A stretch of 56,972 nucleotides of DNA from Deltaproteobacteria bacterium (GTDB taxonomy: Bacteria > Myxococcota_A > UBA9160 > UBA6930), in NCBI GenBank assembly GCA_031401135.1, contig JANNRF010000394.1, forward strand, positions 1 to 56,972, in the 5' to 3' direction. The position numbers and the translations under genes were made by a program. The notes beneath the pieces were generated by a model, which saw only the letters and a list, made by a program, of their open reading frames with translations, had not been told where the DNA came from and did no database searches. This document shows, in pieces, positions 3,745 through 56,972 of the stretch. Each line of letters begins with the position of its first letter. Position 1 is the first letter of the stretch.

Positions 3745-6171
3745 ATTACCGATCGCAGCGCAGAGCGCGGAGCCCTAATTGCCGACGTCGCTGGCGTCGT
3801 CTCGCGCTCGCACGATCTGCGGCAGACGCTCGACAACGTCGTCGACCTCACGGCGAAGCGGCTCGATGCCGACGTCTGCTCCGTCTACCTGACGAGCGCC
3901 GATCGCGCATCGCTGACGCTTTCTGCCACGGTGGGCCTCGACAAGGCCTCGGTCGGGCACGTGAAGCTCGCGGTGGGGGAAGGCCTGGTCGGCCACGTCG
4001 CGGCGCGCGGCGAGCCCGAGGCGTTCGCGGAGGCGCAGCAGCACCCCGCCTACCGCTACTTCCCCGAGACGCGCGAGGAGCAGTTCCGCTCGCTGGCCGC
4101 AGCGCCGCTCAAAGTGCGCGGGCTCAGCGGCGAAGGCTTCACGATCGGCGTGCTGGTGGTGCAGACGCGCGAGGCGCGCGCGTTCTCGGACGCGGAGGTC
4201 GAACTGCTCGAGACCTGTGCGCAGTTGATCGCGCCGATCGTCATCAACGCCCAGCTGCTCAACGTGGTGGCGGGCGGTGAGGAGCGGCGTAGCCGGCTGA
4301 TCCAGGAACTCGGCGGCGTCGGCATCGTGCAGCCCGCGGCGCCGGCGGTTGCTGTGCGCGCCGAGCGCAATGCGGTGCTGAAGGGCACCGCCACCTCGCG
4401 CGGCATCGCGATCGGCCCGGTCTACGTCTTGGGCGACGCCGTCGATCTCGAGCGGCTCGACTACACGCCTAACAAGGACGCCGCGCAGGAGAAGCGCGAT
4501 CTCGAGAACGCGCTCGAGGAGGCGCGCCGCGAACTCCAGGATTTGCGCGAGGACGTCACCCAGCGTTTCGGCCCGGATTTCGCGGCGGTGTTCCACACCC
4601 ACATCCAGATGCTGGAAGACAAGGGTTTCGTCGCGAAGCTCGAGAGCGCGCTCGCGCACACCGGCAACGCGCTCGAAGCGCTGCGCGGCGTGCTGGCCGA
4701 GTACGCCCGCACCTTCGGCGCGCTCGACGATCCGTACTTCCGCGAGCGCGGCGTCGACATCCAGGACGTCGGCCAGCGCGTCGTCGCGAGGCTGCTCGGC
4801 GTGCGCCATCACGACAAGCCGCTGATGGATGGCGCGATCGTGGTGGCCTCCGCGCTCTTGCCCGCGCACTTCGCGACGCTCGACGTCGAGAAGATCGCCG
4901 CGGTCGTTTCCGAGCACGGCGGCCCGACTTCGCACGGCGCGATCTTCGCGCGCGCGCTCGAGATCCCAGCTGTTACGGGTGTCGCGGGGCTGCTCGAAGC
5001 CGCGCGCGCGGGCGAGCTCGCGATCGTCGACGGGGACGCGGGCCGCCTGATCCTCTCGCCCGACGACGAGATCCAGAGCACGTACTCGAAGGCGCAACAG
5101 CGCGCGCTGGTTGCGATCGAGCACCTCGACGCGCTGGCCGAGCGCCCCGCCGAGACGCGCGATGGCCACCGCGTGCGGCTCACTGCCAACGCGGGCCTGC
5201 TCTCGGATCTGCGCCTCGTCGAGCGCCACGGCGCCGAGGGCATCGGCCTGTTCCGCACCGAGCTGCTCGCGCTCGTGCACCGCGGTTTCCCGACCGAGGA
5301 GGAGCAGGAGAAGCTGTACGAGCAGGTAGCGGCCGCGATGAAGCCGCGGCCCGTAACAATTCGCACGCTCGACCTGGGCGGCGACAAGGCGATTCCCGAG
5401 TTGGCGCTCGAGGCCGAGGCGAACCCGCAGCTCGGCTGGCGCTCGATCCGGCTCTCGCTCTCGCACCTCGACGCCTTCCGCGCGCAGCTGCGGGCCGTGC
5501 TGCGCGCGAGCGCCCACGGCAACGTGCGCCTCTTGATCCCGATGGTCTCGGCGATCGACGAGCTGCGCCGCGTGAAGGAACTCGTCGAAGAGGCCAAGGC
5601 GGAGCTCGCGCGCGCCGAAGTTCCCTTCGACGCCCGCATGCCCGTCGGCATCATGATCGAGGTGCCGTCGGTCGCCGTGATCGCCGACGTGTTCGCGCGC
5701 GAGTGCGACTTCTTCTCGATCGGCACCAACGACCTCACGCAGTACACGCTCGCCGTCGACCGCGGGAACGAGCGCGTCGCGCACCTCTACGATCCGCTGC
5801 ACCCGGCGGTGCTCGCCCTGATCGATCGCAGCGTGCGCGCCGCGCGCAAAGCCGGCATCGACATCTCGGTGTGCGGCGAGATGGCGAGCAGCCCGCTGGC
5901 GGTGCCGATCCTGGTGGGCCTCGGCCTCGGCGAGTTATCAGGCGTCGCGAGCGCCGTGCCGCTCGTCAAAGAAATCGTGCGCGCGCTCGACAGCCACACC
6001 GTCGCCGCCGACGCGCGCCGCGCGCTCGATGCCGCGAGCGTCGGCGAAGTGCGCGCAATCGCCGCCGCGCGGCTCGCGGAGGCGGGGCTGCTCGAGCACC
6101 CGGATCTGGGCGAGTTCCTGCGCAGCGTGGTGCAAGGCGCGCAAGGCAACGGCGGCAGCGCGGGGCGTTAG
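3745..6171 (+). CDS. ptsP: Phosphoenolpyruvate-protein phosphotransferase with N-terminal GAF domain (EI-Ntr type)
   Basis: GGPTSHGAIFARALEIPAV phospho-His motif, GIGLFRTE, RTLDLGGDK, FFSIGTNDLTQY, SVCGEMA. The GAF domain (SRSHDLRQTLDNVV...DVCSVYL) extends upstream of the ORF-track start at 3931, so the start is placed at ATT 3745 behind GAGGGAG (inferred). Confidence 0.92.
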   Translation: MTDRSAERGALIADVAGVVSRSHDLRQTLDNVVDLTAKRLDADVCSVYLTSADRASLTLSATVGLDKASVGHVKLAVGEGLVGHVAARGEPEAFAEAQQHPAYRYFPETREEQFRSLAAAPLKVRGLSGEGFTIGVLVVQTREARAFSDAEVELLETCAQLIAPIVINAQLLNVVAGGEERRSRLIQELGGVGIVQPAAPAVAVRAERNAVLKGTATSRGIAIGPVYVLGDAVDLERLDYTPNKDAAQEKRDLENALEEARRELQDLREDVTQRFGPDFAAVFHTHIQMLEDKGFVAKLESALAHTGNALEALRGVLAEYARTFGALDDPYFRERGVDIQDVGQRVVARLLGVRHHDKPLMDGAIVVASALLPAHFATLDVEKIAAVVSEHGGPTSHGAIFARALEIPAVTGVAGLLEAARAGELAIVDGDAGRLILSPDDEIQSTYSKAQQRALVAIEHLDALAERPAETRDGHRVRLTANAGLLSDLRLVERHGAEGIGLFRTELLALVHRGFPTEEEQEKLYEQVAAAMKPRPVTIRTLDLGGDKAIPELALEAEANPQLGWRSIRLSLSHLDAFRAQLRAVLRASAHGNVRLLIPMVSAIDELRRVKELVEEAKAELARAEVPFDARMPVGIMIEVPSVAVIADVFARECDFFSIGTNDLTQYTLAVDRGNERVAHLYDPLHPAVLALIDRSVRAARKAGIDISVCGEMASSPLAVPILVGLGLGELSGVASAVPLVKEIVRALDSHTVAADARRALDAASVGEVRAIAAARLAEAGLLEHPDLGEFLRSVVQGAQGNGGSAGR

Positions 6172-6209
6172 ACGAACGGGTCGCGCGGAGCCACGGAAGG
6201 GGTAACCGG

Positions 6210-7484
6210 ATGAGGACTCTGCAGCGGATCGCGTTCGTTATGGCGCTCCTGCTTGCGGTGCCGGCGAACGCCGAGGTTTTCGTCGAGTCGACAGAGAGGC
6301 TGGTCAGTGAGCAGATCGACGTCCCGCCGGGAGGAATCGTTTATCGGCGTCTCCCGTTGAAGTCCAAGGCCATCATCTCGGCGGAGATTGCGACGCAAGG
6401 AGGGCTAGACAATGAGATTCGAGTCTGGTTCGTCGATCTCCCTAACTTTCAGTTGCTCCAGGGAGGCCAGAAGTTCGCCTTCGTAAGGAAGGGCTCGGGC
6501 ACCGTCTCGGGGCAAGGGCAATTCACGTTCACCGCCGCGCAAGCCAACGTCTACTACCTCGTGCTCGACAACCGCGAATCGTTCACGATGCGCAGGACCG
6601 ACGTGTCTGTCGAGAAGAGCACGGACGAACCGACGCCGGAAGCGGAGGCCGTTCGAGCGGGGTTTGAAGAGCTGTACGGCGGACTGAAGAAAGTGTTCGT
6701 GTTCGAGGATTTCGACATCCACATCACCTCGTGTGGTGAAGCGAACGCGTACTCCACGCCGGACGTTGTCCTCTGCGCCGAGTTGTTCAGCGAGCTTCAC
6801 GAACAGGGCGTCCCGGGGGCAGCGCTGTTCGTTTTCTTTCACGAGCTCGGTCACAGCTTGCTGAACCTCTGGGCTCTGCCGCTTCACGACAACGAGGATG
6901 CCGCTGACGAGTTTGCGACCGTAATGATGTTGCTCGGAGACCATGAGGAGGAGGCATTAGAGGCCGCTGCATGGTGGGCTGAGCGCGCGACGCAGCAGGA
7001 GGCGATCGCGAAGCTCTGGGCGGATGATCGCCACAGCATCTCGCCACAGCGCGCGCGGAACATCGTCAACTGGGTCAACCAAGGTGACGCGTTGAAGCTC
7101 CGGTGGATGAAGTTCCTGTCGCCGAACATGACTGCCACTGCGCAGCGAGAGTTCGCCGAAGAGTCGAAGTCGTGGCGTCCGGCGCCGACGGCGAGCAAGC
7201 AGGGGTTGGCAACGCGAAGGATTCCGATCGAGGTCGAGTTCGTGCCCGGGTCAACGATCGAGGGGCAGGTTGCGCGCATCATCAACACGTCTGGGCGCCG
7301 CCTCTCCCTCAAGTTGGTGGCCGAGAACTCCGCGCTCGACCAACAAGTGTCGGGGGAGCTGGAACTCGCGCCCTCACGCCGACCGATCGAGTGGGGCCCG
7401 GACGAGGGTTGGCACTTTGTGAGTGGAGAGACGCTCACGATCGAGGGCGAAGGCTTCGACGCGCTGAAGCTGACCGTCCCATGA
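6210..7484 (+). CDS. Secreted DUF4344-like zinc metallopeptidase with extra beta domains
   Basis: Signal peptide MRTLQRIAFVMALLLAVPANA; CGEANAY, FFHELGHSL (HExxH), NEDAADEFA, DDRHSISPQR. ATG at 6210; the ORF-track extension into ptsP is spurious. Confidence 0.75.
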   Translation: MRTLQRIAFVMALLLAVPANAEVFVESTERLVSEQIDVPPGGIVYRRLPLKSKAIISAEIATQGGLDNEIRVWFVDLPNFQLLQGGQKFAFVRKGSGTVSGQGQFTFTAAQANVYYLVLDNRESFTMRRTDVSVEKSTDEPTPEAEAVRAGFEELYGGLKKVFVFEDFDIHITSCGEANAYSTPDVVLCAELFSELHEQGVPGAALFVFFHELGHSLLNLWALPLHDNEDAADEFATVMMLLGDHEEEALEAAAWWAERATQQEAIAKLWADDRHSISPQRARNIVNWVNQGDALKLRWMKFLSPNMTATAQREFAEESKSWRPAPTASKQGLATRRIPIEVEFVPGSTIEGQVARIINTSGRRLSLKLVAENSALDQQVSGELELAPSRRPIEWGPDEGWHFVSGETLTIEGEGFDALKLTVP

Positions 7485-7500
7485 CGGGGCCGCGGACGAG

Positions 7501-8214
7501 TCACTCGCTGACCAGATCCACCACTAGCGCAGAGTGATCGCTGCCGCGCACTCGCAGCACCTGCACGTTCGCGGCGAGCACGCCGTTGCCTAACACGTGG
7601 TCGATGCGCAGTGCGCGCGGGGCGCCGGGCCAGGGGCCCCAGGTGCGGCGCGCGAAGCTGTTCCGCAGCGCGGCGTGCTCCCGCGCGAGATCCGGGAGGC
7701 GCGCGGCGAGCGCGCGGTAGGCGGGCCAGAGCGGCGTCGCGTTGAAGTCGCCGCACACGACGCGCGGCGCCTCGGGCGTTGCATCGAGGTAGAGCAGCAG
7801 CGCGGCGAGCTGCGCGCGGCGCGTCGCGAACGCGCGCCACTGCGGGAACGTGTGCGGCGCTTGGATGTGCAGGTTCACGAGTTCGAGCGCGGCGCCGAGT
7901 TCGGGCCAGTCGTTAGGGGAGAGCGTCGCGATGCGCGCGTCGCGGCGCGGCAGCGCGAGGCGGCTCATCGCGAGCGGGCGGCGCGCGGCGATTCCCATGC
8001 CGTCGAAGTCGCGCTTCGTGGCGCCGGGTTCGAGCTTGCCGTGCGGGAGCACGCGCGCGATCGCGGCGGCCTGGCGTGCGCCTAATTCCTGGAAGCACGC
8101 GACGTCCACCGCGAGCTCGCGCAGCTGCGCAGCGAACGCCTCGGGGTCGGCGCGGTCGTGAAACAGGTTCGCGGTGAGCAGGCGGATCGCTCTGCCGGGG
8201 CGGGCCGTCGTCAT
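7501..8214 (-). CDS. Endonuclease/exonuclease/phosphatase (EEP) family protein
   Basis: LLTANL, DVACFQE, NLHI, CGDFNA, RIDHVL and GSDH motifs; ATG overlaps the upstream stop (ATGA). Confidence 0.88.
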   Translation of the reverse strand: MTTARPGRAIRLLTANLFHDRADPEAFAAQLRELAVDVACFQELGARQAAAIARVLPHGKLEPGATKRDFDGMGIAARRPLAMSRLALPRRDARIATLSPNDWPELGAALELVNLHIQAPHTFPQWRAFATRRAQLAALLLYLDATPEAPRVVCGDFNATPLWPAYRALAARLPDLAREHAALRNSFARRTWGPWPGAPRALRIDHVLGNGVLAANVQVLRVRGSDHSALVVDLVSE

Positions 8215-8876
8215 CCGCTCGCGAGCTGCTCGGCGGCTTCTCGGTCCAAGCGGTGCAGCTCCTCCGTCAGTCTGCGGCGCCAGTCTTCGAGCGCCGCGGC
8301 GTCCGCACTTCTCGGAATTTCGAGCGCGTTTCCGTAGCGGAGTCGCACGCTCGCGAACGGCAGCGGCAAGAGCGCGCGGTCCCAGCTGCCGAGCTGGCGT
8401 GAAGGTGCTGCGGCAATTCCCAGCGGCACGAGCGGCGCGCCCGTGGCGCTCGCGAGCGCGAGCACGCCGGTCTTCAGTTCGAACGCAGGCCCGCGCGGGC
8501 CGTCCGGCAGCACGCCGCCACTCTCGCCCGTGCGCACGCGGCGGATCATCTCGCGCAGCAGCGCGCTGCCACCGCGCGAGCTCGAGCCGCGCGGCGCGCG
8601 CGCGAAGCCGAGGCGCAGCAATGCGCCCTCCGCGAGATCGCCGTCGCGCGAGAGGCTGAGCGGCACCCAGAGCCCGCGGTCGCGCATCGCGAACGCGGCA
8701 ACGATTAGGCCGCGGTGCCACGTCACCAGCACGAACGGCGTGTGCGCGGGCGGCGGACCTGATGACTCGATGCGCCAGCTCGCGCCGAGTGCGCGCAGCG
8801 CGAACGCGGCGAGTGCGCCCGCGAGTGCACGCAGCGCGCGCATCACCAAGCCGTCGTCGCGCACCCGCTCGCTCAT
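8211..8876 (-). CDS. DUF374 / lysophospholipid acyltransferase-like protein
   Basis: TWH, SLSRDG, RGSSSRGG and PDGPRGP motifs; ATGA coupling with both neighbours. Confidence 0.85.
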   Translation of the reverse strand: MSERVRDDGLVMRALRALAGALAAFALRALGASWRIESSGPPPAHTPFVLVTWHRGLIVAAFAMRDRGLWVPLSLSRDGDLAEGALLRLGFARAPRGSSSRGGSALLREMIRRVRTGESGGVLPDGPRGPAFELKTGVLALASATGAPLVPLGIAAAPSRQLGSWDRALLPLPFASVRLRYGNALEIPRSADAAALEDWRRRLTEELHRLDREAAEQLASG

Positions 8877-9748
8877 CCCGCCACCGCAATCGTCGCGACG
8901 CCCGCGACCGTGAGCGCCGCGCCCGCGAGCCGCCGCGCGCTCGGGCGCTCGCCGAGAAAGCGCATCGCGAACAGCGCCGCGAACAACACCGAGAGTTGCC
9001 GCACGGCGACGACGTAGCTCGCGGGCGCGGTCTGCAGCACGTGCAAGATCAAGCCGTAGCCGACCAGCCCAGCGATTACGGAGAGCCCCACGCGCGCGAG
9101 ATCGCTGCGCGCGGCTTCGACGAGCGCACTCGCGCCCACCGTGCGCAGAGCGAGCGGCGTGCGCACCGCCACGCTCGCGAGCGTGAGTAGCGCGTACCAA
9201 GCGAGCGGCCGCGGCAGCGCGCCGTGCCACGCGCCCGCGTGCAGCTCCGCCATCGCGAACTTGTCGAACAGCGAGTAGGCCACCGTGGTCGCGAGCGTCA
9301 GCCACGCATAAACAAGTTCTGGCGCGAACAGTTTTCGCAGCGAGAGCTCCTCGCCGTACACGAGCCACACCCCTGCGACCACGATCGCGATGCCGAGCGC
9401 GCCGAGCGGCGTGACAATTTCGCCAAGCGGAATCGCGATCAGCGGCAGCAGCGCCGGGGTGGAGCGAATGATCGGGTAAACGCGCGTCAGCTCGGCCCGC
9501 GTGTAGGCGAGGCTCATCCAGTAGCCGTAGAGGCCGTGAGCGAGGCCGGTGGCGGCGACCAGCACCCAGATCGCAGGCGCGAGATCGGTGAGGTCGAAGA
9601 AGGCGAGGGCCACGAGCGCGAGCGGCACCTCGGCGAGTTGTTGGGCCGTGCCGAACGCGAGCGGGCTACGCGCGCCCTTGATCGCGACGCTCCACACCGC
9701 GTGCAAGAGCGCGCTCACGAGCACCAGCGCGAGCTCGGTGGGATTCAC
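8873..9748 (-). CDS. EamA/DMT family transporter
   Basis: About 10 TM segments; SALLHAVW, LTRVYPIIR, YSLFDK, SYVVAVRQLSV and FLGE motifs. Confidence 0.88.
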   Translation of the reverse strand: MNPTELALVLVSALLHAVWSVAIKGARSPLAFGTAQQLAEVPLALVALAFFDLTDLAPAIWVLVAATGLAHGLYGYWMSLAYTRAELTRVYPIIRSTPALLPLIAIPLGEIVTPLGALGIAIVVAGVWLVYGEELSLRKLFAPELVYAWLTLATTVAYSLFDKFAMAELHAGAWHGALPRPLAWYALLTLASVAVRTPLALRTVGASALVEAARSDLARVGLSVIAGLVGYGLILHVLQTAPASYVVAVRQLSVLFAALFAMRFLGERPSARRLAGAALTVAGVATIAVAG

Positions 9749-10147
9749 GGCGGCGCACTATAGGCAGCGCGCAGGCGGAACTGGGGGAGCGAAGCGCCGT
9801 GTCATCGCACGTTCACGCGCAACGACGAGGGCCAGAGCGCTGCCTTTACCGTGGGCGGGCAGACGAGCTGGTGAGCGTACGAAGAACTCTTCCCGATCCA
9901 ACTTACGTCAGGATTATTGGACCATTGAACTGAGAGCGACTCACCGGCCCGGCGCCATACACTCGATTGATGCAACAGGCGCCGTGGTGGCTTTTGCTCG
10001 CAATGCTCTGGCTGTTTGGCTCGGCAGCAATGCGGATCGTGCATCCGATGCGGTGCTAGCCGCCGCCCACCGCAGGCTCCGCCGCATGGCGACCGCGCTT
10101 CTCCAGCCTATGTTCCCGCCCCTCTCGGCGTCGGAGATCCCCCCAAC

Positions 10148-11059
10148 ATGAGCGCAGCATCGTTGCCCGAGCCCGCGCGCTCATCGTTCTCGCGCACGCT
10201 CTCGCTCTACCTCGCGCTCACCAAGCCGCGCATTCTCCCGCTCGTGATCTTCACCGCGCTGCCCGTCTTGTTGATGGCGCACGACGCGCCCGGCTTCGCG
10301 CGCAGCCTCGCCATCCTCGCGGGCATCTCGCTCGCGGCCGGCGCGGCGAACACGCTCAACATGTACGTGGAGCGCGATCGCGACGCGCTGATGGAGCGCA
10401 CGCGCACGCGCCCGCTGCCGAGTGGCGCGATCTCCGCGCGCGCGGCGCTCTTGTTCGGCCTCGCGCTCTCCGCGCTCGCGACGGCTGCGCTCTACGCCAT
10501 CGCGGGCGCACCGGCCGCGGGGCTCGGCGTCGCGAGCATTCTCTTTTACGTGTTCGTCTACACGATCTGGCTGAAGCCGCGCTCCGCGTACAACGCGGTC
10601 ATCGGCGGCGCGGCGGGCGCTGCGGCGCCGCTGATCGCGGACGCCGCGGTGAACGGCAGCGTCGGCTGGCCGGGCCTGCTCTTGTTCTCGATCGTGTTCT
10701 TCTGGCAACCGCCCCACGTCTGGGCGATCGCGCTCTACCGCAAGGGCGACTACGCCGCGGCCGGCATCCCGATGATGCCCGCGGTCATTGGGGATGAGCG
10801 CACGCGCCGCCGCATTCTCTGGTACACGCTCGGCCTCCTGCCCGTGACGATCGCGCCCGCGCTGCTCGGCCTGCTCGGCCCTATCTATCTAACTGCCGCG
10901 GCTCTCCTCGGCGCGTGGTTCGTGTGGTCCGGCGTGCAGTTGATTCGCGAGCGTACCGACGCCGCGGCGCAGCGCGTCTTCCGCGTCTCGCTCGGCTACC
11001 TCGCGCTGCTCTATCTCGCGATGCTGGTGGATCTGATCGCGCCGAAGCTGATCGCGTAG
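10148..11059 (+). CDS. cyoE: Protoheme IX farnesyltransferase (heme o synthase)
   Basis: LTKPR, NMYVERDRDALMERTRTRPLPSG, YTIWLKPR, FWQPPH and DYAAAGIPM motifs. Confidence 0.95.
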   Translation: MSAASLPEPARSSFSRTLSLYLALTKPRILPLVIFTALPVLLMAHDAPGFARSLAILAGISLAAGAANTLNMYVERDRDALMERTRTRPLPSGAISARAALLFGLALSALATAALYAIAGAPAAGLGVASILFYVFVYTIWLKPRSAYNAVIGGAAGAAAPLIADAAVNGSVGWPGLLLFSIVFFWQPPHVWAIALYRKGDYAAAGIPMMPAVIGDERTRRRILWYTLGLLPVTIAPALLGLLGPIYLTAAALLGAWFVWSGVQLIRERTDAAAQRVFRVSLGYLALLYLAMLVDLIAPKLIA

Positions 11060-11072
11060 CCGGGCCGCGGCC

Positions 11073-11507
11073 GTGGATCTTTCTGGGCTGCCCGCCGTCA
11101 ACGCCTCGCTGAACGCCGTCGCGACGGTGCTGCTGCTCTGGGGTCGCGCGCTCGTGAAGCGTGGGCGCATCGATGCGCATCGGCGCGTAATGCTCTCCGC
11201 GTTCGCGGTATCGAGCTTGTTCCTCGCGTTCTACGTCGCGCACAAAGTCTCACGCTCGTTCGAGAACACCACGTTCAACGCGCACGGCGCCGCGAAGGCC
11301 GCGTACCTCGCGCTGCTCGCGAGCCACGTCGTGCTCGCGGCGCTCGTGCCATTCCTCGCGCTCGCGCTGATCCGCTTCGGTCTGCGCGGCGAGATCGCGC
11401 GGCATCGCCGCCTCGCGCGCGTCGCATGGCCGATCTGGATGTACGTCTCGATCACCGGCGTGGTGATCTACGTGCTGCTCTATCAGGTGAATCCGCTGCT
11501 CATGTGA
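11073..11507 (+). CDS. DUF420 family membrane protein (oxidase-associated)
   Basis: LPAVNASLN, HRRVM, SHVVLA and HRRLARVAWPIWMYVSITGV; lies next to cyoE. Confidence 0.9.
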   Translation: MDLSGLPAVNASLNAVATVLLLWGRALVKRGRIDAHRRVMLSAFAVSSLFLAFYVAHKVSRSFENTTFNAHGAAKAAYLALLASHVVLAALVPFLALALIRFGLRGEIARHRRLARVAWPIWMYVSITGVVIYVLLYQVNPLLM

Positions 11508-11598
11508 AGTCGCGCCAAGCCGTGGCGCGATGCCTCGCGCGAAGAGCGGAGAACGCGCGCAACCCGCGGTTTCTCGCTGGTTTTGTGCCCTCCGTCCC

Positions 11599-11627
11599 TT
11601 GAAAATCGCATGCCCTCCGCTCACACT
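11599..11627 (+). promoter_or_regulatory. Candidate sigma70-type promoter of the oxidase operon
   Basis: TTGAAA-N17-CACACT; direct repeat TGCCCTCCG at 11586-11594 and 11611-11619. Confidence 0.35.
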
Positions 11628-11715
11628 GCGCGCCGCTTCTCGGCGGGCGCGCCGCTGTGATCCGATGAGTCCGCCGCGCGCGTTGGCCCACGAGAACATC
11701 CGCGCAAGGACCATC

Positions 11716-12435: not shown

Positions 12436-12447
12436 GAGCCTCGAGCA

Positions 12448-12555
12448 ATGAACAAACAGCGCACGGCCGAGGGCACGGCCTCCTATTTTTTCTGGCTGTC
12501 GATGGCCGGCTTCGCGGCCTGGATCGCTGCCGGCTTCTACATCATTTTGCTCTGA
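12448..12555 (+). CDS. 35-aa single-pass membrane peptide (not in ORF track)
   Basis: MNKQRTAEGTASYFFWLSMAGFAAWIAAGFYIILL*; TAGGAG RBS 9 nt upstream; fills the gap between the cytochrome c gene and subunit II. Confidence 0.7.
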   Translation: MNKQRTAEGTASYFFWLSMAGFAAWIAAGFYIILL

Positions 12556-12564
12556 GGTCCGAAC

Positions 12565-13263: not shown

Positions 13264-13279
13264 TTAGGTCGAGGACACC

Positions 13280-14977: not shown

Positions 14978-15014
14978 CAAGCGGCGTCCCAAGGAACCTG
15001 GAGAGCGAGACGCG

Positions 15015-15584: not shown

Positions 15585-15591
15585 GTGACGC

Positions 15592-15975: not shown

Positions 15976-16061
15976 CAAGCGGCGTTCCGCCGCGCGCAGC
16001 GAGGCGAAGCCGAGCGAAGTCGAACGAGACCGCTCGGGCTTCTCCCCCGGAGGCCCTAAAC

Positions 16062-16655: not shown

Positions 16656-16657
16656 CC

Positions 16658-16876: not shown

Positions 16877-16877
16877 G

Positions 16878-43927: not shown

Positions 43928-43929
43928 CC

Positions 43930-49362: not shown

Positions 49363-49529
49363 CGAGCGGCGACTCGCTGTGAGGCGAACTCGAACGCCCC
49401 GCGTCTTGGACGCACGGCCCGCCGCCCGGAAGGCTCGGACGAGCCAGGAAGAGAGCGCGCCGCTGCGGAGCCCTTCTGCCAGTCCGGCCAGTCGTTCCTC
49501 CAACGGGTTGCAAACAGCGTCGTCCGAGC

Positions 49530-49671
49530 AGTGGTTCAGCGAGGAGTAAAGCCGCTCGCGCCGCAACAACGCGCCGATCTCACGCGGCTTCCGGCAACGC
49601 TCAGCTTCGCGAATAATTTTCTGGCGCCGGCGAGACTTCGCCGACAGCTCCTTGACGCGTCCATCAGTGCC
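49530..49671 (-). mobile_element. Degenerate IS3-family transposase OrfA fragment
   Basis: Minus frame reads ELSAKSRRRQKIIREAERCRKPREIGALLRRERLYSSL, resembling the IS3 OrfA pattern RRRFTAEYK..IL.EA..C...GEIGALLRREGLYSS with an internal deletion; in-frame stop upstream. Confidence 0.65.
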
Positions 49672-49955
49672 CTAACGCGCGATCTGAAGCACGAGCGCAG
49701 GCGTCGCCGTAACCATCAGCTAGAGCATGGGATCTCGCAGCGGCCGGTGCGCAGCGCCTCGCTATTGGGGAGCGAAGTCAACGCGCGAGCGCCGGGTTCG
49801 CAGCGCACGCCCAGCGGCACTTCGCCGCGCGGCAGGTCGCGTGGAGGAGAGGCGCGAGCGCCGCGCGGCGATCACGTTGCCACTCGCAGTCGCGCAGTTG
49901 CGCCGCCAGCTCGCACACTGCGCGGTGTAGGATGCGCGCGCCGTGGAGGTTGCTC

Positions 49956-52352
49956 ATGTCGCAGTTGTCGTTTCGTGCATTCCGCTTCGCCTTGCTCGGG
50001 GCCGCTTTCTTCCTGATGACTGGCGCGCCGTCGTGCGGCCCGCGCCCGATCGTGCTCGCCGCGCCTGCGGACGGGCAGCTCTCGCTTGCGGGTAGCTCGG
50101 TGGCCTTCGCGTTCGCGATGCCCGAGGGCGCGGGGCTCGCGAACCTCACGCTCACGCTCGATGGCGCGCCGGTCGCGCCGCCGGATCTCGCGCTCGCGAA
50201 CGGCAGCGCGACGGGCACGCTCGCCGGCCTCGCGCCGGGCTGGCACGAGCTCGTCGCCGATGTCGCGGCTGGCGGCGCGCAGTTCTCCGGGCGCAGCACG
50301 TTCGAGCTCGCCGCCCTCACGAACCCCGACGAGTGCGATGTGCTCAATAACATCTCGTGCCTGCTGCCGTTCCCGTCGTCGCGCTTCCTGGTCCCGGCGA
50401 ACACGCGCACCGGCTTGCGCGTCGAGCTGCCCCCTGCGCAATTCCTCCCGCAGTTCGGCGGCACCAGCGCCGACTCGGCACAATACGCGCGGAACGACGG
50501 CTTCAGCCCGACCGCGCAGGTGTTGATGCACTTCCCCGGCGGCGTCGACGTGGCGCAGTCGAACGCCTCGCGCATCGATCCCGTGACGCGCACTTATGGC
50601 GCGCGCGGCCTCGACGGAGACAGCCCCACGCTGCTGATCGATTACGAAACAGGCGAGCGCATCAATCACTGGCTCGAGAACGATTCGCGCGCGCGCGGCG
50701 CGCGGCCGGTGCTGACGTTCCTGCGCCCCGGCGAGAGCCTCACGCCGGGCCACCGCTACATCGTCGCGGTGCGCGGCCTTCTGAACGCGAGCGGCGCTGC
50801 CGTGCTCGCGGAGCCCGCCTTCGCGGCGATTCGCGATGCGCGGCCGTCCACGGTCCCGGCCGTGCGCAAGCGCGCCGAACAGCTCGCGCCCGTCTTCAGC
50901 CGTCTCGCGCGCTTCGGCATCGAGCGCAGCGACCTAATTCTCGCCTTCGACTTCGTCGTGATGAGCGATCACTCGCTCACGCACGAAATGCTGAAGATGC
51001 GCGCCTTCGGCTTCCGCTGGCTCGACGAGCAGCTCGCAGCCGGCGCGCAGCCGTTCAGCGTCACGACTGTTACGGACGTGAACCCGAACTGCGCCGACCC
51101 GGCCATTCCGACTTGGCGCCGCGTCCAAGGCACGTTCTCGGTGCCGCTCTTCCTCGAAGGCGATCCGTTCACGGCGGCGAATACGCCCACGTTCCTGCGC
51201 CGCGACGCGGACGGCGCCCCGCGCGCGCAAGGCTTGACGGAGGCGCCCTTCGGCGCGGCGATTCCCTGTTCTGCCTTCAACGCCGCCACCCCGGCGCCCG
51301 GCCTGGTCATCGGGCACGGCCTGTTCGGCACCGGCGTCAGCACGGTGAACTCGCTCACGGCTTCGCGAGGGCTCACGAACTTCGGCTTCGTCTCGGTCGC
51401 GACGAACTTCAGCGGCTTATCAGGGCCGGATGTCTCGGGCCCGCTCGGTCAGACGCCGCTCGATCAGAGTTTCATCTATCAACTCATCGTCGATCCGACG
51501 CTCTTCCCCGCGCTGCCGGACCGCCTGCGCCAGGGACAGCTGAACACGCTGATCCTCGCGCGCCTGCTCGCACGCGGCGCGTTCAACTCGCACGCCGCGT
51601 TCCAACTGCCGAACGGCGGCGGATCGATCGCGACGGACGTGAAGCCTTATTATTTCGGCGCGAGTCTCGGCGGCATCATGGGCACGATGTTCGCGGCGCT
51701 CACGCCCGACGTGGACAAGCTCAACGTCGATGTGCCCGCCATCAACTTCTCGCTGCTGCTGCACCGTGCGACGCCGTTCCTCCAGTTCGAGCAGCTGGTC
51801 CAGCTGCTGAACCGCGACCCGCTCGAGCAGGCGCTCGGCCTCGGGCTCCAGCACGAACTCTGGGTGCGCGGCGAGCCGGCCGGCTACGCGACGCACGTCA
51901 CCTCGAATCCGTTCCCCGGTACGAACGCGAAGCAAGTGCTCGCGACGGTCGCACTCTACGACCACCAGGTCGCGAACCTCGGTTCGCAGTTGTTGGGCCG
52001 AACGCTGCGGCTCGGCGCGCTCGAAGGCTCGGTGATGCGCGGGCTGCCAGGCCAACCCGATCTCACAGGCCCGCAGAACTCCGGCTACATCGTCTACTCC
52101 ACAGGCTCCTTCGACCCCAACAACCCGCTCCACCTCCCGTTCATCCCGCCGCTCATCAACGAGCAGGTGCAGATCAGCAAGTGCGATCCGCACGGCCGGC
52201 GCGGCTTCATTCCGGCCTCGGTGGCGCAGCTCCAACAGTTCTTCACGCCCGGCGGCAAGCTCGCGAACTACTGCACGGACGACGGCGTGTGCAACGCGTC
52301 CGAGCCGAACGAGTGGCCAAACGGCGTGACGCCCTGCGATCCGCTGCAGTGA
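49956..52352 (+). CDS. Secreted or lipoprotein alpha/beta-hydrolase (lipase-like) with N-terminal beta domains
   Basis: GGAGG RBS; signal peptide with possible lipobox GAPSC; CLLPFPS, NDGFSP, GHGL oxyanion motif, GASLGG nucleophile elbow, DPH. Confidence 0.78.
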   Translation: MSQLSFRAFRFALLGAAFFLMTGAPSCGPRPIVLAAPADGQLSLAGSSVAFAFAMPEGAGLANLTLTLDGAPVAPPDLALANGSATGTLAGLAPGWHELVADVAAGGAQFSGRSTFELAALTNPDECDVLNNISCLLPFPSSRFLVPANTRTGLRVELPPAQFLPQFGGTSADSAQYARNDGFSPTAQVLMHFPGGVDVAQSNASRIDPVTRTYGARGLDGDSPTLLIDYETGERINHWLENDSRARGARPVLTFLRPGESLTPGHRYIVAVRGLLNASGAAVLAEPAFAAIRDARPSTVPAVRKRAEQLAPVFSRLARFGIERSDLILAFDFVVMSDHSLTHEMLKMRAFGFRWLDEQLAAGAQPFSVTTVTDVNPNCADPAIPTWRRVQGTFSVPLFLEGDPFTAANTPTFLRRDADGAPRAQGLTEAPFGAAIPCSAFNAATPAPGLVIGHGLFGTGVSTVNSLTASRGLTNFGFVSVATNFSGLSGPDVSGPLGQTPLDQSFIYQLIVDPTLFPALPDRLRQGQLNTLILARLLARGAFNSHAAFQLPNGGGSIATDVKPYYFGASLGGIMGTMFAALTPDVDKLNVDVPAINFSLLLHRATPFLQFEQLVQLLNRDPLEQALGLGLQHELWVRGEPAGYATHVTSNPFPGTNAKQVLATVALYDHQVANLGSQLLGRTLRLGALEGSVMRGLPGQPDLTGPQNSGYIVYSTGSFDPNNPLHLPFIPPLINEQVQISKCDPHGRRGFIPASVAQLQQFFTPGGKLANYCTDDGVCNASEPNEWPNGVTPCDPLQ

Positions 52353-52490
52353 TCGCACGGAGTTCTGCACCCGCCGTTTCCTGAGCGGAATCGAGCACAT
52401 TCCGCATCGCATTTCGCAGCAGACCGCCTCGATTCACCTGCCCACCTCGGCTAAACAGAGCGCCGTTTCATTCGGCCGGGAGGGCTGGCT

Positions 52491-54221
52491 TTGCTGGATG
52501 TCGTTCGCCATGACGTCGTGATCGTGGGTGGGGGCGCTGCGGGTCTTCGTGCCGCGATCGCCGCTTGCGAAGCGGATCCGACGATCACCGTGGCGCTGGT
52601 TTCGAAGGTCTATCCGATGCGGAGCCACACCGTCTCCGCGGAAGGCGGCGCCGCGGCGGTTCCGCCAGGCTCGAAGGACGACAGCCTCGAGCAGCACGCC
52701 TTCGACACGGTCAAAGGCTCGGACTTCTTAGGCGATCAGGACGTCATCCAGTATTTCGTGCAGGAGGCTCCCAAGGAGTTGACGCTGCTCGATCACTGGG
52801 GCTGCCCGTGGAGCCGCAACGCCGACGGCAGCGTTTCGACGCGCCCGTTCGGCGGCATGCAGACGCCGCGCACGTGGTACGCCAGCGACAAGATCGGCTT
52901 CCACATGTTGCACACGCTGTTCCAGACTTCGCTGAAGTACGAGCGCATCGTGCGCTACGACGAACACTTCGTGACGAAGTTGTTAGTGGATGGCGGCAAG
53001 TGCGGCGGCGTCGCGGCGCTCGACATCCGCACCGGCAAACTGAAGGCGGTGCTCGGGCGCGCGGTGATCCTCACCACCGGCGGCGCCGGCAAAGTGTGGC
53101 CGTTCACGACGAACGGAAACATCAAGACGGGCGACGGCATGTCGGTGGCGTACCGCGAAGGCGTGGCGCTGAAGGACATGGAGTTTGTGCAGTACCACCC
53201 CACCGGGCTACCGGGCACGGGCATCCTGATCACGGAAGCCTCGCGCGGCGAGGGCGGCTACCTGATCAACTCCGAGGGCGAGCGCTTCCTGATCACGCGT
53301 GATTATGGCGTCGGCACCAAGGCCGAACTCGGTCCGCGCGACATGATCTCACGCGCGATCATCCAGGAGATCGAAGCGGGCCGCGGCATCGACGTGCCGG
53401 GCAAGCTCGGTAAGTACGCGCACCTCGACCTGCGCCACATCGGCAAGGAAAAGCTCGAGTCTCGATTGCCGTTCGTGCTCGAACTCGCGCGCACGTATGC
53501 GGGCATCGACCCGGTGACGCAGCCGATTCCGATCCGCCCCGTGCTCCACTACATGATGGGCGGCGTCGACGTGAACATCGACGGCGCGACCAGCATCGGC
53601 GGGCTCTACGCCGCGGGCGAGACGGCCTGCGTCTCGCTGAACGGCGCGAACCGGCTCGGCTCGAACTCGCTCACCGAGTGCCTCGTGTTCGGCGCGCGCG
53701 CGGGCGTGCACGCCGTCGGGCTCGCGAAGCGCAGCATGGCGGGCAGCGAAGCGCCGCTGCTCGAGCAAACGAAGAGCGAGGCCGCGCGGCTCGATGCCTT
53801 GCGCGCGCGCAAGCGCGGCGGCGAGACGCTCTCGGGCATTCGCCAAGACATGAACACCGCGATGGAGGTCGGGCTCGGCGTCTACCGCGAGCAGGCGCCG
53901 ATGGACAAGGCGGTGCGCGACATCGCGGAGCTGAAGCGGCGCTTCGAGCAGGTGAGCCTCTCCGACGCGAGCAAAGTGTTCAACACCGAGCTCACGACGG
54001 CGCTCGAACTTTCGAACTTGCTGGATTGCGCGGAGGCTGTCGCCACCGCGGCGGCGCAGCGCAAGGAATCGCGCGGCGCTCACGCGCGGCGAGATTTCCC
54101 GAAGCGCAACGACGCGGAGTTCATGCACCACTCGCTGGTGCACTGGGGCCCGCATGGCCCGCGCTTCAGCACTAAGTCCGTCACGCTCGGCGTGTGGGTT
54201 CCGGAAGAGCGAAAGTATTAG
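52491..54221 (+). CDS. frdA: Fumarate reductase / succinate dehydrogenase flavoprotein subunit
   Basis: GGGAAG, RSHTVSAEGG (Glu as in FrdA), QYHPTG, HYMMGG, NRLGSNSL and ESRGAH. Confidence 0.93.
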   Translation: MLDVVRHDVVIVGGGAAGLRAAIAACEADPTITVALVSKVYPMRSHTVSAEGGAAAVPPGSKDDSLEQHAFDTVKGSDFLGDQDVIQYFVQEAPKELTLLDHWGCPWSRNADGSVSTRPFGGMQTPRTWYASDKIGFHMLHTLFQTSLKYERIVRYDEHFVTKLLVDGGKCGGVAALDIRTGKLKAVLGRAVILTTGGAGKVWPFTTNGNIKTGDGMSVAYREGVALKDMEFVQYHPTGLPGTGILITEASRGEGGYLINSEGERFLITRDYGVGTKAELGPRDMISRAIIQEIEAGRGIDVPGKLGKYAHLDLRHIGKEKLESRLPFVLELARTYAGIDPVTQPIPIRPVLHYMMGGVDVNIDGATSIGGLYAAGETACVSLNGANRLGSNSLTECLVFGARAGVHAVGLAKRSMAGSEAPLLEQTKSEAARLDALRARKRGGETLSGIRQDMNTAMEVGLGVYREQAPMDKAVRDIAELKRRFEQVSLSDASKVFNTELTTALELSNLLDCAEAVATAAAQRKESRGAHARRDFPKRNDAEFMHHSLVHWGPHGPRFSTKSVTLGVWVPEERKY

Positions 54222-54279
54222 GCGGAAGCGCAGCGCGGAGAGCGCAGCGCGAACTCGAGTGGAGATCTGAAAGGGAGCC

Positions 54280-55023
54280 ATGGCCCAGGTCAAGAAGACT
54301 CTGATCGTCACGCGCTTCGACCCGGACAAGGACGAGAAGCCGCACACGCAGAAGTACGAGATCTCCGTCGAGTCCGACGCGAAGGTTCTCGACGCGCTGA
54401 ACCACATCAAAGACCACGTCGATTCGACGCTCTCGCACCGCTGGTCGTGCCGGATGGCGGTGTGCGGCAGCTGCGGCATGAACGTGAACGGCAAGCCGAA
54501 GCTCACCTGCAAGGACGCGGTCTCGAACTACGGCGACGTGATCGAAGTCGCGCCGCTCGCGAACTTCCCGGTGGTGCGCGATCTCGTCGTCGAGCTCGAA
54601 GGCTTCATGGACAAGTTAAAGGCGGTGAAGCCTTGGATCATGGTCGCCAAGGAGCGCGCCGTCGAAGCTGGGCCGACGAAGCAGTCGCCCGATGAGCTCA
54701 ACGACTTCAAGCAGTTCAGCATGTGCATCAACTGCATGCTCTGCTACGCCGCCTGCCCGGTGGTCTCGAACGAGCCGGACTTCTTAGGGCCCGCGGCGAT
54801 CGCGCTCGGCCACCGATACAACCTGGACACGCGCGACGAAGGCGCCGGCGAGCGCAACGAGATCTTCCGCCAGGACGGCGGCGTGTTCTCGTGCTCGTAC
54901 GCGAACGAGTGCAGCGAGGTCTGCCCGAAGCACGTCGATCCGTCGGCCGCGATCCAGCAGGCGAAGCTCAACAACGTGCTCGACTGGGCCAAGGGCTTTG
55001 TCGTGCCGCGGGGAGGGAAGTGA
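54280..55023 (+). CDS. frdB: Fumarate reductase iron-sulfur subunit
   Basis: WSCRMAVCGSC, CINCMLCYAACP and C.....CSEVCPKHVDP. Confidence 0.94.
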   Translation: MAQVKKTLIVTRFDPDKDEKPHTQKYEISVESDAKVLDALNHIKDHVDSTLSHRWSCRMAVCGSCGMNVNGKPKLTCKDAVSNYGDVIEVAPLANFPVVRDLVVELEGFMDKLKAVKPWIMVAKERAVEAGPTKQSPDELNDFKQFSMCINCMLCYAACPVVSNEPDFLGPAAIALGHRYNLDTRDEGAGERNEIFRQDGGVFSCSYANECSEVCPKHVDPSAAIQQAKLNNVLDWAKGFVVPRGGK

Positions 55024-55466
55024 TGAGCCACGCACGTCCCCGACTCGACGCGATGAAACCGAGGAAGCCCGGCGCGACGCGCACCGCCGATCCACGGCCG
55101 CCCGACAAGTTCCCGCTTGGCGGGAATTACGGCCCGTACCTGTTGTTCGGCTCGTGCGGTGTGTTCCTGCTGCTGACGAGCTTGATCGTGATCGAGTTCG
55201 TCTGGTCGCTTGCGGGCGGCGAGGCCAAGTACGACGCCTTCCTCGATCGCATCCACGGTGGCGCTTATCAGGCGTACTTCTGGCTCGCGCTGGTCGCGCT
55301 CGTATGGTTCACGCTGCGCTTCCTCGGCCTGTTCCCGAAGACGCAGCCGTTCCGCATCGGCCCGTTCAAGCGCCCACCGGATGCAGTCATGCTCGCCGGC
55401 CTCTACGCCGCGTTCGTGGTGCTGAACCTCGCGGTCGCCGTGATCCTCGGAGGCATGCTCGGATGA
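55023..55466 (+). CDS. frdC: Fumarate reductase membrane anchor subunit C (divergent)
   Basis: 3 TM segments, lies between frdB and frdD; LAGGEAKYDAFL and LFPK resemble FrdC. Confidence 0.75.
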   Translation: MSHARPRLDAMKPRKPGATRTADPRPPDKFPLGGNYGPYLLFGSCGVFLLLTSLIVIEFVWSLAGGEAKYDAFLDRIHGGAYQAYFWLALVALVWFTLRFLGLFPKTQPFRIGPFKRPPDAVMLAGLYAAFVVLNLAVAVILGGMLG

Positions 55467-55813
55467 AGGCCCTAATGCGGAAGCTCGAGCCGGTGATCTG
55501 GCTGCTGTTCGGCGCCGGCATGATGGTGGGCGGTTTCGTGCTGCCCGCGTGGATCGCGACCGTGGGCCTCGGCCTCGTCGGCGACGCGGACGCGTTCTCC
55601 TACGACCGCATGTACGCGATGTTCACGCACCCGGTCGGCCGCCTCGTCGCGCTCGCCGCGATGGCGCTGCCGCTCTGGGGCGGCGCGCATCACCTGCGCC
55701 ACGTCTCGATCGACCTCGGCGGCCTGCAACGCGACCCGCTCGTCGGCGGCCTGCTCTACGCACTCGCGCTCGGCGGCAGCCTCGCCGCCGTAATCGCGGT
55801 AGTGACGCTCTGA
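55463..55813 (+). CDS. frdD: Fumarate reductase membrane anchor subunit D
   Basis: EPVIWLLFGAGMM...P and LPLWGGAHHLRH...DL. Confidence 0.88.
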   Translation: MKALMRKLEPVIWLLFGAGMMVGGFVLPAWIATVGLGLVGDADAFSYDRMYAMFTHPVGRLVALAAMALPLWGGAHHLRHVSIDLGGLQRDPLVGGLLYALALGGSLAAVIAVVTL

Positions 55814-55814
55814 G

Positions 55815-55916
55815 CGGGGACGTTTCGTAAGAAAGGTAAGTTGTTCCGCCGGTCATGAGCCGGAGAGGCCATCGCGTGACTGGCGAGAAACTTAACTTTC
55901 TTACGGAACGTCCCCG
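55815..55916. repeat. 102-bp palindromic element (REP/MITE-like, GGGGAC...GTCCCC ends)
   Basis: Arms 55815-55842 and 55889-55916 match at 26/28 positions; inner stem CGCCGGTCATG/CGTGACTGGCG; AT-rich relative to flanks. Confidence 0.85.
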
Positions 55917-56972
55917 TCTGCCTCTCTCCGGGCTGCGGATTCTCGATCTCACGCGCGTGGTCGCGGGGCCATTTGCGACGGCGATCTTCGCGGACCTCGG
56001 CGCGGACGTCGTGAAGATCGAGGCGCCCCGCACCGGCGACGACTATCGCTACGGCCCGTCGCCGCCAGGGCAGACCTCGCTCTCGTTCCAGAACAACAAC
56101 CGCGGCAAGCGCTCGATCACGCTCGACGTGCGCTCGCCCGAAGGCCGCGAGCTGTTACTGAAGCTCGTGGACGGCGCCGACGCGCTGATCGAGAATTTCC
56201 GCGCGGGCTACATGGCGAAGTGCGGCCTCGGCCCCGAGCTGCTGCAAGCGCGCAACCCGCACCTCGTGGTCGCCTCGCTCTCCGGCTTCGGGAAGACCGG
56301 GCCGCGCGCGGGCGAGCCCTCCTACGACATCGTCGCGCAGGCCACTGGCGGCATGATGGCGATGACCGGCTTCGCGGATGCGCCGCCTGTTAGGGCCGGC
56401 GGCGCGGTCGGCGATTTCGTCGGCGGGCTCTACCTGGCGCTCGGCGTCGCGGTCGCGCTGCTCGAGCGCGAGCGCACCGGCAAGGCGCGCGTGCTCGATC
56501 TCTCGAACCAAGACTGTGTGTTCGCGATCACCGATTCTGCGGCGACGATCTTCTCGGGCATCGGCGCGAAGATGGAGCGCGTCGGCAACGCGCATCCGTT
56601 CAGCTCGCCCTACGACAGCTTCGCTGCACGCGACGGCTTCATCGTGGTGGGCACAGCCAGTAACAAGCTGTTCCGCAAGCTGTGCGACGCGATCGGGCGC
56701 CCGGAGCTCGGCCGCGACGAGCGTTTCAAGAACCACCGCGTGCGCGCGGCGAATCGAGTCGAGCTCTCCGCGATCATCGCGGAGTGGATGCGCGCGCGGA
56801 GTTGCGACGAAGTGCTCAGCGCGCTCGGCCCGAACGGCGCCGACGTGCCGTGCGCGCGGGTCGCCAGCCCGCACGAGCTGATCGACGACCCGCAGCTGAT
56901 CGCGCGCGGCATGATCGAGCGCCAGCCGCATCCGCAGCTCGGCGAGATCGTCTTCCACGGCAACGCGCTGCG
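55876..56972 (+). CDS. CaiB/BaiF family III CoA-transferase (runs off the window end)
   Basis: Frame +1: PLSGLRILDLTRVVAGPF, DLGADVVKIE, NRGKRSITLD, ENFR, SGFG and YD. Absent from the ORF track because it has no stop in the window. Start GTG 55876 (or ATG 55855). Confidence 0.93.
   Translation, partial: MTGEKLNFLTERPRLPLSGLRILDLTRVVAGPFATAIFADLGADVVKIEAPRTGDDYRYGPSPPGQTSLSFQNNNRGKRSITLDVRSPEGRELLLKLVDGADALIENFRAGYMAKCGLGPELLQARNPHLVVASLSGFGKTGPRAGEPSYDIVAQATGGMMAMTGFADAPPVRAGGAVGDFVGGLYLALGVAVALLERERTGKARVLDLSNQDCVFAITDSAATIFSGIGAKMERVGNAHPFSSPYDSFAARDGFIVVGTASNKLFRKLCDAIGRPELGRDERFKNHRVRAANRVELSAIIAEWMRARSCDEVLSALGPNGADVPCARVASPHELIDDPQLIARGMIERQPHPQLGEIVFHGNAL

Follow-up and report, generated by a model that had tools for sequence, protein, structure and literature searches.

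A degenerate, mutually spaced 11-mer within the genes of one deltaproteobacterial genus and a candidate AP2-like reader

The DNA considered here is contig C394 (JANNRF010000394.1) of a Deltaproteobacteria bacterium (assembly GCA_031401135.1, referred to as G000), analysed over its full length of 56,972 nt, which we call the window. The host probably belongs to Myxococcota, a placement reached indirectly: of 80 LeuS loci compared, mostly from distant taxa, a Myxococcota record was among the nearer full-length matches and had the most similar length. The LeuS loci also supplied background densities. Its genes include leuS, recQ and a ptsI-like gene, and scattered through them is the heptamer TGTTASG, or CSTAACA on the other strand. 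An earlier, sequence-only reading had listed 25 start positions for this heptamer. All are exact matches, and with one overlooked copy the window holds 26 (15 on the + strand and 11 on the - strand), as compared with 2.54 +- 1.51 in 100 dinucleotide shuffles, none of which reaches 26. A self-trained gene finder puts 26/26 within genes, in both sense and antisense frames, and they often coincide with TTA, GTT, GTA, CTA or CCT-AAC codons; the claims that copies lie on both strands within coding sequences, over-represented beyond composition and on otherwise rare TTA/GTT/GTA codons, are therefore borne out. We find the heptamer to be part of a DNA code that is real, under selection and confined to one genus, and whose sites obey a clear spacing rule.

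The excess extends across the whole genome (4.83 Mb in 516 contigs, N50 15.5 kb, 68.6% GC; 4,743 genes called by the same gene finder, 89.5% coding). TGTTACG occurs 1,184 times and TGTTAGG 937 times (2,121 together); for TGTTAGG, Markov models of order 2 and order 3 predict 49 and 116 copies, respectively. Within coding sequences, 1,105 TGTTACG and 830 TGTTAGG compare with 110 and 55, respectively, in 12 within-gene synonymous-codon shuffles, a 10-15x excess. The sequence-only reading had named a Markov or codon-shuffled model and simple CTAG avoidance as accounts that would undo its claim; both were run. The Markov, dinucleotide and codon-shuffle nulls all fall short of the counts. CTAG is avoided in G000 (0.45 of expectation), but its avoidance leaves TGTTACG and TTATCAGG unexplained, and CTAG words, in contrast to the mutually repelling motif, cluster.

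Behind the heptamer stands a degenerate 11-mer, of which it is one spelling and which is kept at about 10,000 mutually spaced sites. The enriched words align to a single non-palindromic 11-mer, A-S-T-T-R-T-T-A-S-G-G, for which expectation-maximization (EM) gives a profile (in %) of A41 S77 T60 T57 R96 T97 T83 A69 S82 G77 G59, worth 9.2 bits, and a site number of about 11,800 in G000, of which 9,908 have a posterior above 0.5. The consensus is weak: the commonest 11-mer accounts for 121 of these 9,908 sites, a strong core with many perfect copies is absent, and spellings such as TTGTTACGG, TTATCAGG, CATTAGG and TTGTTGGGG share no fixed core (TGTTAGGC occurs 373 times and CGTTAGGC 80 times). The position weight matrix (PWM) is not a palindrome and has no invariant core, hence no exact-palindrome methyltransferase site as in HIP1. 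The earlier proposal of a genome-wide signal is thus supported in that a selected DNA signal exists, but its unit is the 11-mer, with the heptamer only a part of it.

Motif enrichment climbs steeply above about 8-9 bits. G000 has 6,713 sites of at least 10 bits: 3,869 are in sense and 2,107 in antisense orientation, while the other 737 lie between genes or at their edges. Relative to codon usage learned outside the sites, enrichment is 6- to 86-fold in every one of the six frame/strand classes, which indicates that the pressure acts on DNA and not on peptide or RNA; amino-acid identity at the sites is not visibly changed, and 72% of the TTA codons of G000 fall in motif sites. Site density is 1.39/kb overall, 1.0/kb in intergenic DNA and 0.70/kb in ribosomal protein genes, and genes with a GC content at third codon positions (GC3) below 0.8 carry 0.2-0.9 sites/kb versus about 1.5.

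Sites exclude each other at short range. Relative to random placement, the density of site pairs is 0.11 at 12-30 bp, 0.30 at 75-100 bp, 0.63 at 150-200 bp, 0.96 at 250-300 bp and 1.09-1.11 at 400-600 bp. The exact heptamer yields the same curve, while the control words CTAG and TGATCA cluster instead. The hole is equal on the 5' and 3' sides, whether the neighbour lies on the same or the opposite strand. Opposite-strand pairs that do not overlap stand, within 50 bp, at 0.15-0.17 of the far level, with no inverted terminator pairs, and what is depleted around strong sites is the motif in its other spellings. The related genomes G003 and G001 likewise have fewer pairs within 120 bp than expected. 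In G001, neighbours within 120 bp number 0.02 per site where the site is kept and 0.14, near background, where it is lost, so that exclusion tracks the sites that a genome itself has. The hazard is level past 300 bp, without an upper spacing limit. We infer that each site benefits about 150 bp either way and that this benefit saturates. Of the replichore and spacing tests proposed in the sequence-only reading, spacing thus yields a marked short-range rule, while replichore bias is weak.

Conservation was assessed on 30-190 kb of aligned sequence per genome. Sites of at least 11 bits in G000 are kept in 130/184 cases in G003, 14/31 in G004, 52/154 in G001 and 17/55 in G007, and in only 8/84 in G005, 3/77 in G008 and 8/119 in G002. 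At four-fold degenerate positions, A/T is identical in G003 in 85/135 cases (63%) inside sites versus 418/2,269 (18%) outside, and in G004 in 11/19 versus 28/233. The sites turn over, yet are retained well above the neutral rate, by selection or drive; this is the synonymous-site conservation among relatives that the sequence-only reading had suggested looking for.

The word is enriched in 9/9 genomes of the genus and in 0/216 other members of the class. Counts of the form ASTTRTYRSGG are 112-547 in eight genus genomes and 54 in G002; none of the 216 others exceeds 49, and in all of these the form lies under its reversed control. G002, which is sister to the rest of the genus in the tree, carries the word thinly, with TTATCAGG at 83 versus 8 for its reversed control, as compared with 2 versus 1 in G020 and 0 versus 7 in G023. 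The PWM is the same across the genus, while site density varies about tenfold, dropping as GC rises (Spearman -0.82 over nine related, and so not independent, genomes). Samples of 100-160 kb each from G002, G009, G020, G023 and G031, samples of nine genomes of family f13 and 40 kb of G094 yielded no alternative word, although a word as sparse as that of G002 would be missed in them. The G002 assembly looks error-rich, its leuS (L085, L142) being split by several frameshifts. The sites of the window are collected in Table 1.

Table 1. Heptamer cores and further motif sites of the 11-mer in the window
Feature	Position	Strand	Remarks
Whole window	1..56972		80 sites of at least 10 bits, 104 of at least 9 bits
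TGTTAGG core	4468..4474	-	antisense in ptsI-like gene
TGTTACG core	4971..4977	+	site 12.6 bits
TGTTACG core	5352..5358	-	site 14.6 bits
TGTTAGG core	7589..7595	-	on TTA codon
Motif site without heptamer	7908..7919	+	12.7 bits
TGTTAGG core	13833..13839	+	TTA codon, cytochrome c oxidase subunit I
AGTGATTACGG variant	16091..16102	+	14.0 bits; kept in G003
TGTTAGG core	16809..16815	+	on TTA codon
TGTTACG core	18960..18966	+	
TGTTAGG core	19995..20001	+	in leuS
TGTTACG core	20023..20029	-	in leuS; one of the rare close pairs
AGGTATTACGA variant	20506..20517	-	12.3 bits
TGTTACG core	20715..20721	+	in leuS; site kept in G003, G004, G001
TGTTACG core	23911..23917	+	
TGTTACG core	25003..25009	-	
TGTTACG core	25244..25250	-	on TTA codon
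Motif site without heptamer	26271..26282	-	14.4 bits; in recQ
TGTTAGG core	26626..26632	-	TTA codon in recQ
TGTTAGG core	27878..27884	+	
Motif site without heptamer	27954..27965	-	12.8 bits
TGTTACG core	28236..28242	-	on TTA codon
TGTTACG core	31095..31101	-	site 14.5 bits
Motif site without heptamer	34430..34441	-	13.6 bits
TGTTACG core	34919..34925	-	
Motif site without heptamer	38071..38082	-	12.9 bits
Motif site without heptamer	38420..38431	+	12.2 bits
TGTTAGG core	42285..42291	+	on TTA codon
TGTTACG core	42719..42725	-	overlooked in the sequence-only reading
TGTTACG core	45113..45119	+	on TTG TTA
TGTTAGG core	46798..46804	+	on TTG TTA
TGTTAGG core	47361..47367	+	on TTG TTA; site 13.0 bits
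TGTTACG core	49199..49205	+	on TTA codon
TGTTACG core	51068..51074	+	
Motif site without heptamer	52978..52989	+	14.6 bits; fumarate reductase/succinate dehydrogenase flavoprotein gene
Motif site without heptamer	56150..56161	+	12.1 bits
TGTTAGG core	56388..56394	+	
Motif site without heptamer	56657..56668	-	12.1 bits

Our candidate for the reader of this word is encoded outside the window, at G000:C354:8134-8340 on the - strand, just after secG and tRNA-Leu(GAG). It was picked, for its AP2-like look, among 31 genes with at least three upstream sites of 7.5 bits. The protein is basic, with 68 residues, 15% Lys and a Lys/Ala-rich tail. It is present in 9/9 genus genomes, the other eight sequences being 86-98% identical to that of G000, and was not found in 24 other genomes of the family. 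Distant homologues with 30-41% identity and other C-terminal parts occur in 7/216 genomes of the class, and a profile search of 401 genomes of the phylum matched eight, five of them in the genus. The structure model has a beta3-alpha arrangement (strands 7-13, 17-24 and 27-34, helix 41-59; predicted local distance difference test score 80), and its best-probability Foldseek match is the PfSIP2 AP2-DNA complex 6sy0 (0.96, with a root-mean-square deviation of 1.8 A over 51 residues). In the Atlas cluster of the candidate, AP2 is assigned to 10% of members with a score of 0.93. On this modelling the protein may be called AP2-like, family membership not being reached by score. The homodimer prediction scores 0.01. 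As a gauge of abundance, the codon index of the gene lies at the 72nd percentile, on a scale that places rpsU at the 17th percentile.

No AP2 relative was found among the viral contigs searched, and the literature searched, which left most subscription journals outside, held no description of this word or of a stand-alone bacterial AP2 nucleoid protein. Among the distant genes, those of genus g35 (L281-L286) have a Cys-rich C-terminal part, and others belong to genus g41 (L280, L283); that of G103 has a longer second part. The long C-terminus of the AP2-like open reading frame (ORF) in G002 may be an artefact of its error-rich assembly.

The word itself stands beside the AP2-like gene. In 9/9 genus genomes tRNA-Leu is preceded at about 55 bp by one site (8.0-13.0 bits) and followed at about 15 bp by another (8.6-12.8 bits), the two sharing one strand; a third site, near -60, is present in 4/9. 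Spellings of the leader sites vary as the flanks diverge (for example, GGTGATTAGGG in G001 and G007, GGCTGTTAGGG in G005 and ATGAATTATGG in G000), and both persist in G005, G008 and G002, where fewer than 10% of ordinary sites survive. Such an arrangement is rare: sites on both sides are found at 1/52 tRNAs of G000, and at least three upstream sites of 9 bits at 11/4,255 of its genes. The downstream site is present in 0/5 family genomes that have the secG-tRNA junction without the AP2-like gene. Among seven metagenome contigs, the upstream site is present in 5/5 and the downstream site in 5/6 with enough sequence, L303 matching G001 and thus not being independent. In G023 the tRNA is followed directly by a dehydrogenase-like gene, a remnant of which follows the AP2-like gene in G000; judged from gene order, this fits insertion of the AP2-like gene at the tRNA. 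The leader of the AP2-like gene also has a conserved GC-rich block with paired-looking segments (L271-L279; 9/9 genomes), possibly an RNA structure.

We propose that the 11-mer is likely, if by a modest measure, bound by this genus-specific AP2-like protein, acting as a sequence-specific nucleoid protein that limits its own synthesis. Range, fold and footprint come together in its gene. The three-stranded sheet would read the non-palindromic word as a monomer, and the Lys/Ala-rich tail, or sliding on DNA, would extend the reach to about 150 bp each way; a second site within reach would add little and would not be retained. GC-ward mutation would erode the AT-rich word and weak selection restore it, which would leave fewer sites where GC is higher. 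Negative autoregulation would come from the sites on either side of the tRNA-Leu promoter region and the gene leader. Insertion of the gene at the 3' end of tRNA-Leu probably took place in the ancestor of the genus, with recoding of the chromosome following later. As to the cellular role of binding, compaction, anchoring of other chromatin proteins and mild repression are all guesses. The fuller scenario, to which we give a little short of an even chance, is that a stand-alone AP2 protein of mobile-element origin was captured at a tRNA and turned into a chromatin protein, and that the chromosome was rewritten with rare codons into a spaced lattice offering a landing site every 450-500 bp or so; the mutual exclusion of these sites would then measure the reach of the protein on DNA.

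Several observations weigh against this proposal. The assignment to AP2 is below significance in Foldseek (E=0.68 for 6sy0) and in Pfam (PF00847: 14.7 bits versus a cut-off of 33.3, E=0.04), and in a wide fold search AP2, at Z 6.1, is tied with dsRBD- and HPF-like folds and AP2-like mitoribosomal chains. The protein was the second candidate, after an 89-aa protein had failed. Word and protein arose on one branch, so that their co-distribution is a single event; any genus-specific gene would share the range of the word, and only ten candidate genes or families were range-checked. G002 has a nearly identical sheet yet few sites, about 13 per Mb versus 25-122, while the genomes of distant homologues show no TTATCAGG excess (5/5), and no other word was found in 40 kb of one of them. 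At the locus, the upstream site reaches at least 9 bits in 1/5 of the outgroup genomes with the gene-less junction (10.1 bits), and its sequence is shared with the Gln and stop codons of secG and with an AT-rich stretch close to the promoter. The upstream site may thus have other reasons for retention, none being apparent for the downstream site. Conserved promoter sites show that the reader regulates the locus or the tRNA, not strictly that this gene is the reader. Coverage is also soft, with 145/8,212 inter-site gaps longer than 2 kb; a site-free gap of 7.4 kb (C496:2415-9780) spans core genes, including ORFs named by eye as recA-like and pilT-like.

Of the possibilities raised in the sequence-only reading, a nucleoid-protein site fits best and a DNA-uptake sequence less well. 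Under the uptake explanation, which we regard as unlikely though not negligible, a pilus or periplasmic receptor prefers the word, uptake and homologous recombination drive its spread, and a second nearby site adds nothing. Uptake words are known as USS (uptake signal sequence) in Pasteurellaceae and DUS (DNA uptake sequence) in Neisseriaceae (PMC7811141, PMC1939737, PMC2817400; comparisons with published systems here and below rest on excerpts of the cited papers). Like these, our word is non-palindromic, conserved, lineage-restricted and fairly evenly spaced, with thousands of copies on both strands and in several frames, and it is scarce in new DNA: an island with type I restriction-like genes (G000:C377:1-13400) is nearly site-free, with about two sites in 13 kb. 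The low density in ribosomal protein genes also suits uptake, as do the presence of ComEC, ComEA, DprA and pilin-like genes, the finding that Haemophilus USS pairs within 100 bp do not raise uptake (PMC7811141), and a near-identical 2.1-kb stretch among contigs that otherwise diverge by 4-6%, which hints at recombination. However, the tested competence genes are equally present in word-free relatives, and unrelated loci of 26-49% GC have 4-28 strong sites per 10 kb by chance versus 9.1 in G000, so that the word is a poor self tag that cannot separate self from AT-richer DNA, in which the site density maintained by the genus comes at no cost. A search for the ComP receptor family (PF16732) matched 0/5 genomes and equally 0/14 controls. 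Unlike DUS and USS it is degenerate (9 bits), it leaves amino-acid identity without visible change, its close pairs are depleted ninefold, where in Haemophilus 23% of USS have a second one within 100 bp (PMC7811141), and it lacks inverted terminator pairs; the best candidate reader is a small basic protein without a pilin-type N-terminus. Silent A/T bases that stand alone are hardly scarcer in the neighbourhood of sites (odds 0.93-0.98), which leaves no clear conversion tract, and drive does not predict that the sites of one promoter are held in 9/9 genomes, site-poor ones included.

A different intracellular reader, which would regulate the tRNA-Leu/AP2 locus as well, strikes us as rather improbable; it could be a genus-specific gene outside the screen or an older protein whose specificity has shifted. 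The spacing, frame and conservation results suit any such protein, the range checks covered only the ten candidates mentioned, and site stacks also precede two P4-like integrase genes. Against it, the AP2-like gene combines range, fold and footprint, while IHF/HU and both histone-fold genes occur in word-free genomes; indeed, none of ComEC, ComEA, DprA, IHF/HU, the two histone-fold genes and the integron integrase follows the range of the word. The 89-aa protein, with a coiled coil and a basic helix (G000:C247:4904-5173), is in 8/9 genus genomes and 0/183 other genomes of the order, but also in 21/32 of family f13; it was rejected since 6/6 sampled f13 genomes (80-100 kb each) lack the word and its own promoter has no conserved site. 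Least probable of all is a polar signal for replication or recombination (Chi, KOPS, primase site) or an integron/integrase by-product (GTTRRRY core). Chi and KOPS (FtsK orienting polar sequences) are over-represented, non-palindromic words in genes, as is ours, and are strongly polar along replichores, whereas our word is orientation-redundant at about 55:45. Where skew is clear (39 contigs, 786 sites), the G-rich strand shows an excess of 43 sites, a small surplus of the kind that a word rich in G and T should give; orientation per contig, with gene direction allowed for, is near binomial (chi-square 241 on 210 degrees of freedom, p=0.07), and opposite-strand sites exclude each other equally, which is unexpected for a polar signal, so that the earlier suggestion of a Chi-like sequence is not upheld. 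For the integron variant, G000 has integron integrases and TGTTAGGC contains what we take to be the integron core spelling, but integrases pass the cut-off in 116/225 class genomes, nearly all of them word-free. The XerD arm of the dif-like site is also spelled differently from the motif.

Methylation- or repair-biased mutation, as in the Elhai-type ratchet for HIP1, or a self-stabilising repair signal that lowers the local mutation rate, is in our view very unlikely, although such a signal would presumably also yield short-range exclusion, and within 60 bp of strong sites GC3 is raised by 0.6-0.9 points. The GC3 effect lies mostly in AT-clustered, motif-like contexts (odds 0.54-0.79) and hardly touches isolated bases, a pattern that reads as weak sites being redundant near strong ones. 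Four-fold-site identity is no higher near sites, in comparison with either G003 (27,647 sites) or G001 (21,834 sites), and the spellings offer a methyltransferase no fixed core; the HIP1-like option of the earlier account thus lacks support. HIP1 of cyanobacteria, for which a role in chromosome structure has been proposed while its function is still open, resembles our word in being hyper-abundant, conserved at silent positions and found within and between genes (PMC5861425). It is, however, exactly palindromic, its core is methylated and it shows a periodicity of 10-90 kb (PMC5861425), whereas the word here is non-palindromic and degenerate, shows exclusion under 300 bp and has a candidate reader.

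Returning to the nucleoid-protein reading, we consider by analogy that the system most likely works like Gbn (SCO1839) of Streptomyces, a nucleoid protein that reads GATCWT (PMC9239103). In both cases a small nucleoid protein that recognises a particular sequence would act on a GC-rich genome, its sites numbering in the thousands and lying in promoters as well as in coding regions (PMC9239103). Our candidate differs in being AP2-like, and the excerpt of PMC9239103 reports no gene recoding or site spacing. With AP2 and integrase arm-type domains (PfSIP2, 6sy0; the arm domain of HPI integrase, 3jtz) the candidate shares a predicted three-stranded sheet with a helix and a non-palindromic site of about 10 bp; unlike them, it is a stand-alone chromosomal protein of 66-74 residues with a Lys/Ala tail, very conserved in one genus, and its ORF has no nuclease or recombinase domain. 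Comparable iterated words are CGTTAGGC of Gemmatimonadaceae, which shares GTTAGG with one spelling here, and TGTATCAC.

Some further features were seen along the way. The 89-aa protein (L184) has an H-NS-like layout and Atlas neighbours in Acidobacteriota; at E<=0.001 it has 3,080 representatives, in many of which helices are repeated; the G000 protein has no Pfam, NCBIfam or PHROG match, and its fold search gave no result. One histone-like gene (G000:C37:4524-4736) matches PF00808 and PF00125, while the other (G000:C123:2266-2469) has no Pfam match; both are also in word-free G020. The two densest site stacks of G000, C30:12845-13027 and C377:13410-13609, lie just upstream of the P4-like integrase genes and could represent either arm-type repeats or control of the integrase by the reader; an integrase homologue in G031, the one word-free genome examined, has no stack. 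The dif-like site lies in G000:C72 near 16272, counted on the - strand. A REP-like (repetitive extragenic palindrome-like) intergenic repeat of about 55 bp (window 15971-16025) has dozens of copies in G000 (for example, C85:11594-11856), often in tandem at about 110-bp spacing, and has matches in all genus genomes. Another repeat family is represented by GGAACGTCC (window 44682 and 55905), with 198 copies on 92 contigs of G000, strongly clustered at 30-150 bp spacing, and also present in G002. At window 27418-29533, contigs of runs X4, X5 and X7 differ by 1-10 letters over 0.5-2.1 kb, as compared with 3-6% elsewhere, which suggests recent exchange of this stretch.

Iterated words had two precedents, uptake tags and HIP1; here, the spacing of such a word follows a rule that can be measured, and a protein of 68 residues is the candidate for reading it. 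Both the exclusion curve and the footprint at the reader's own promoter can be reused as tests for other iterated words, some of which, such as the Gemmatimonadales words and perhaps HIP1, would also have small intracellular readers if our proposal is true. If the AP2-like protein does bind the 11-mer, this would be a bacterial coding genome reshaped by a chromatin-type protein, and the tenfold range of site density with GC within the genus would offer a natural series for mutation-selection balance on binding sites.

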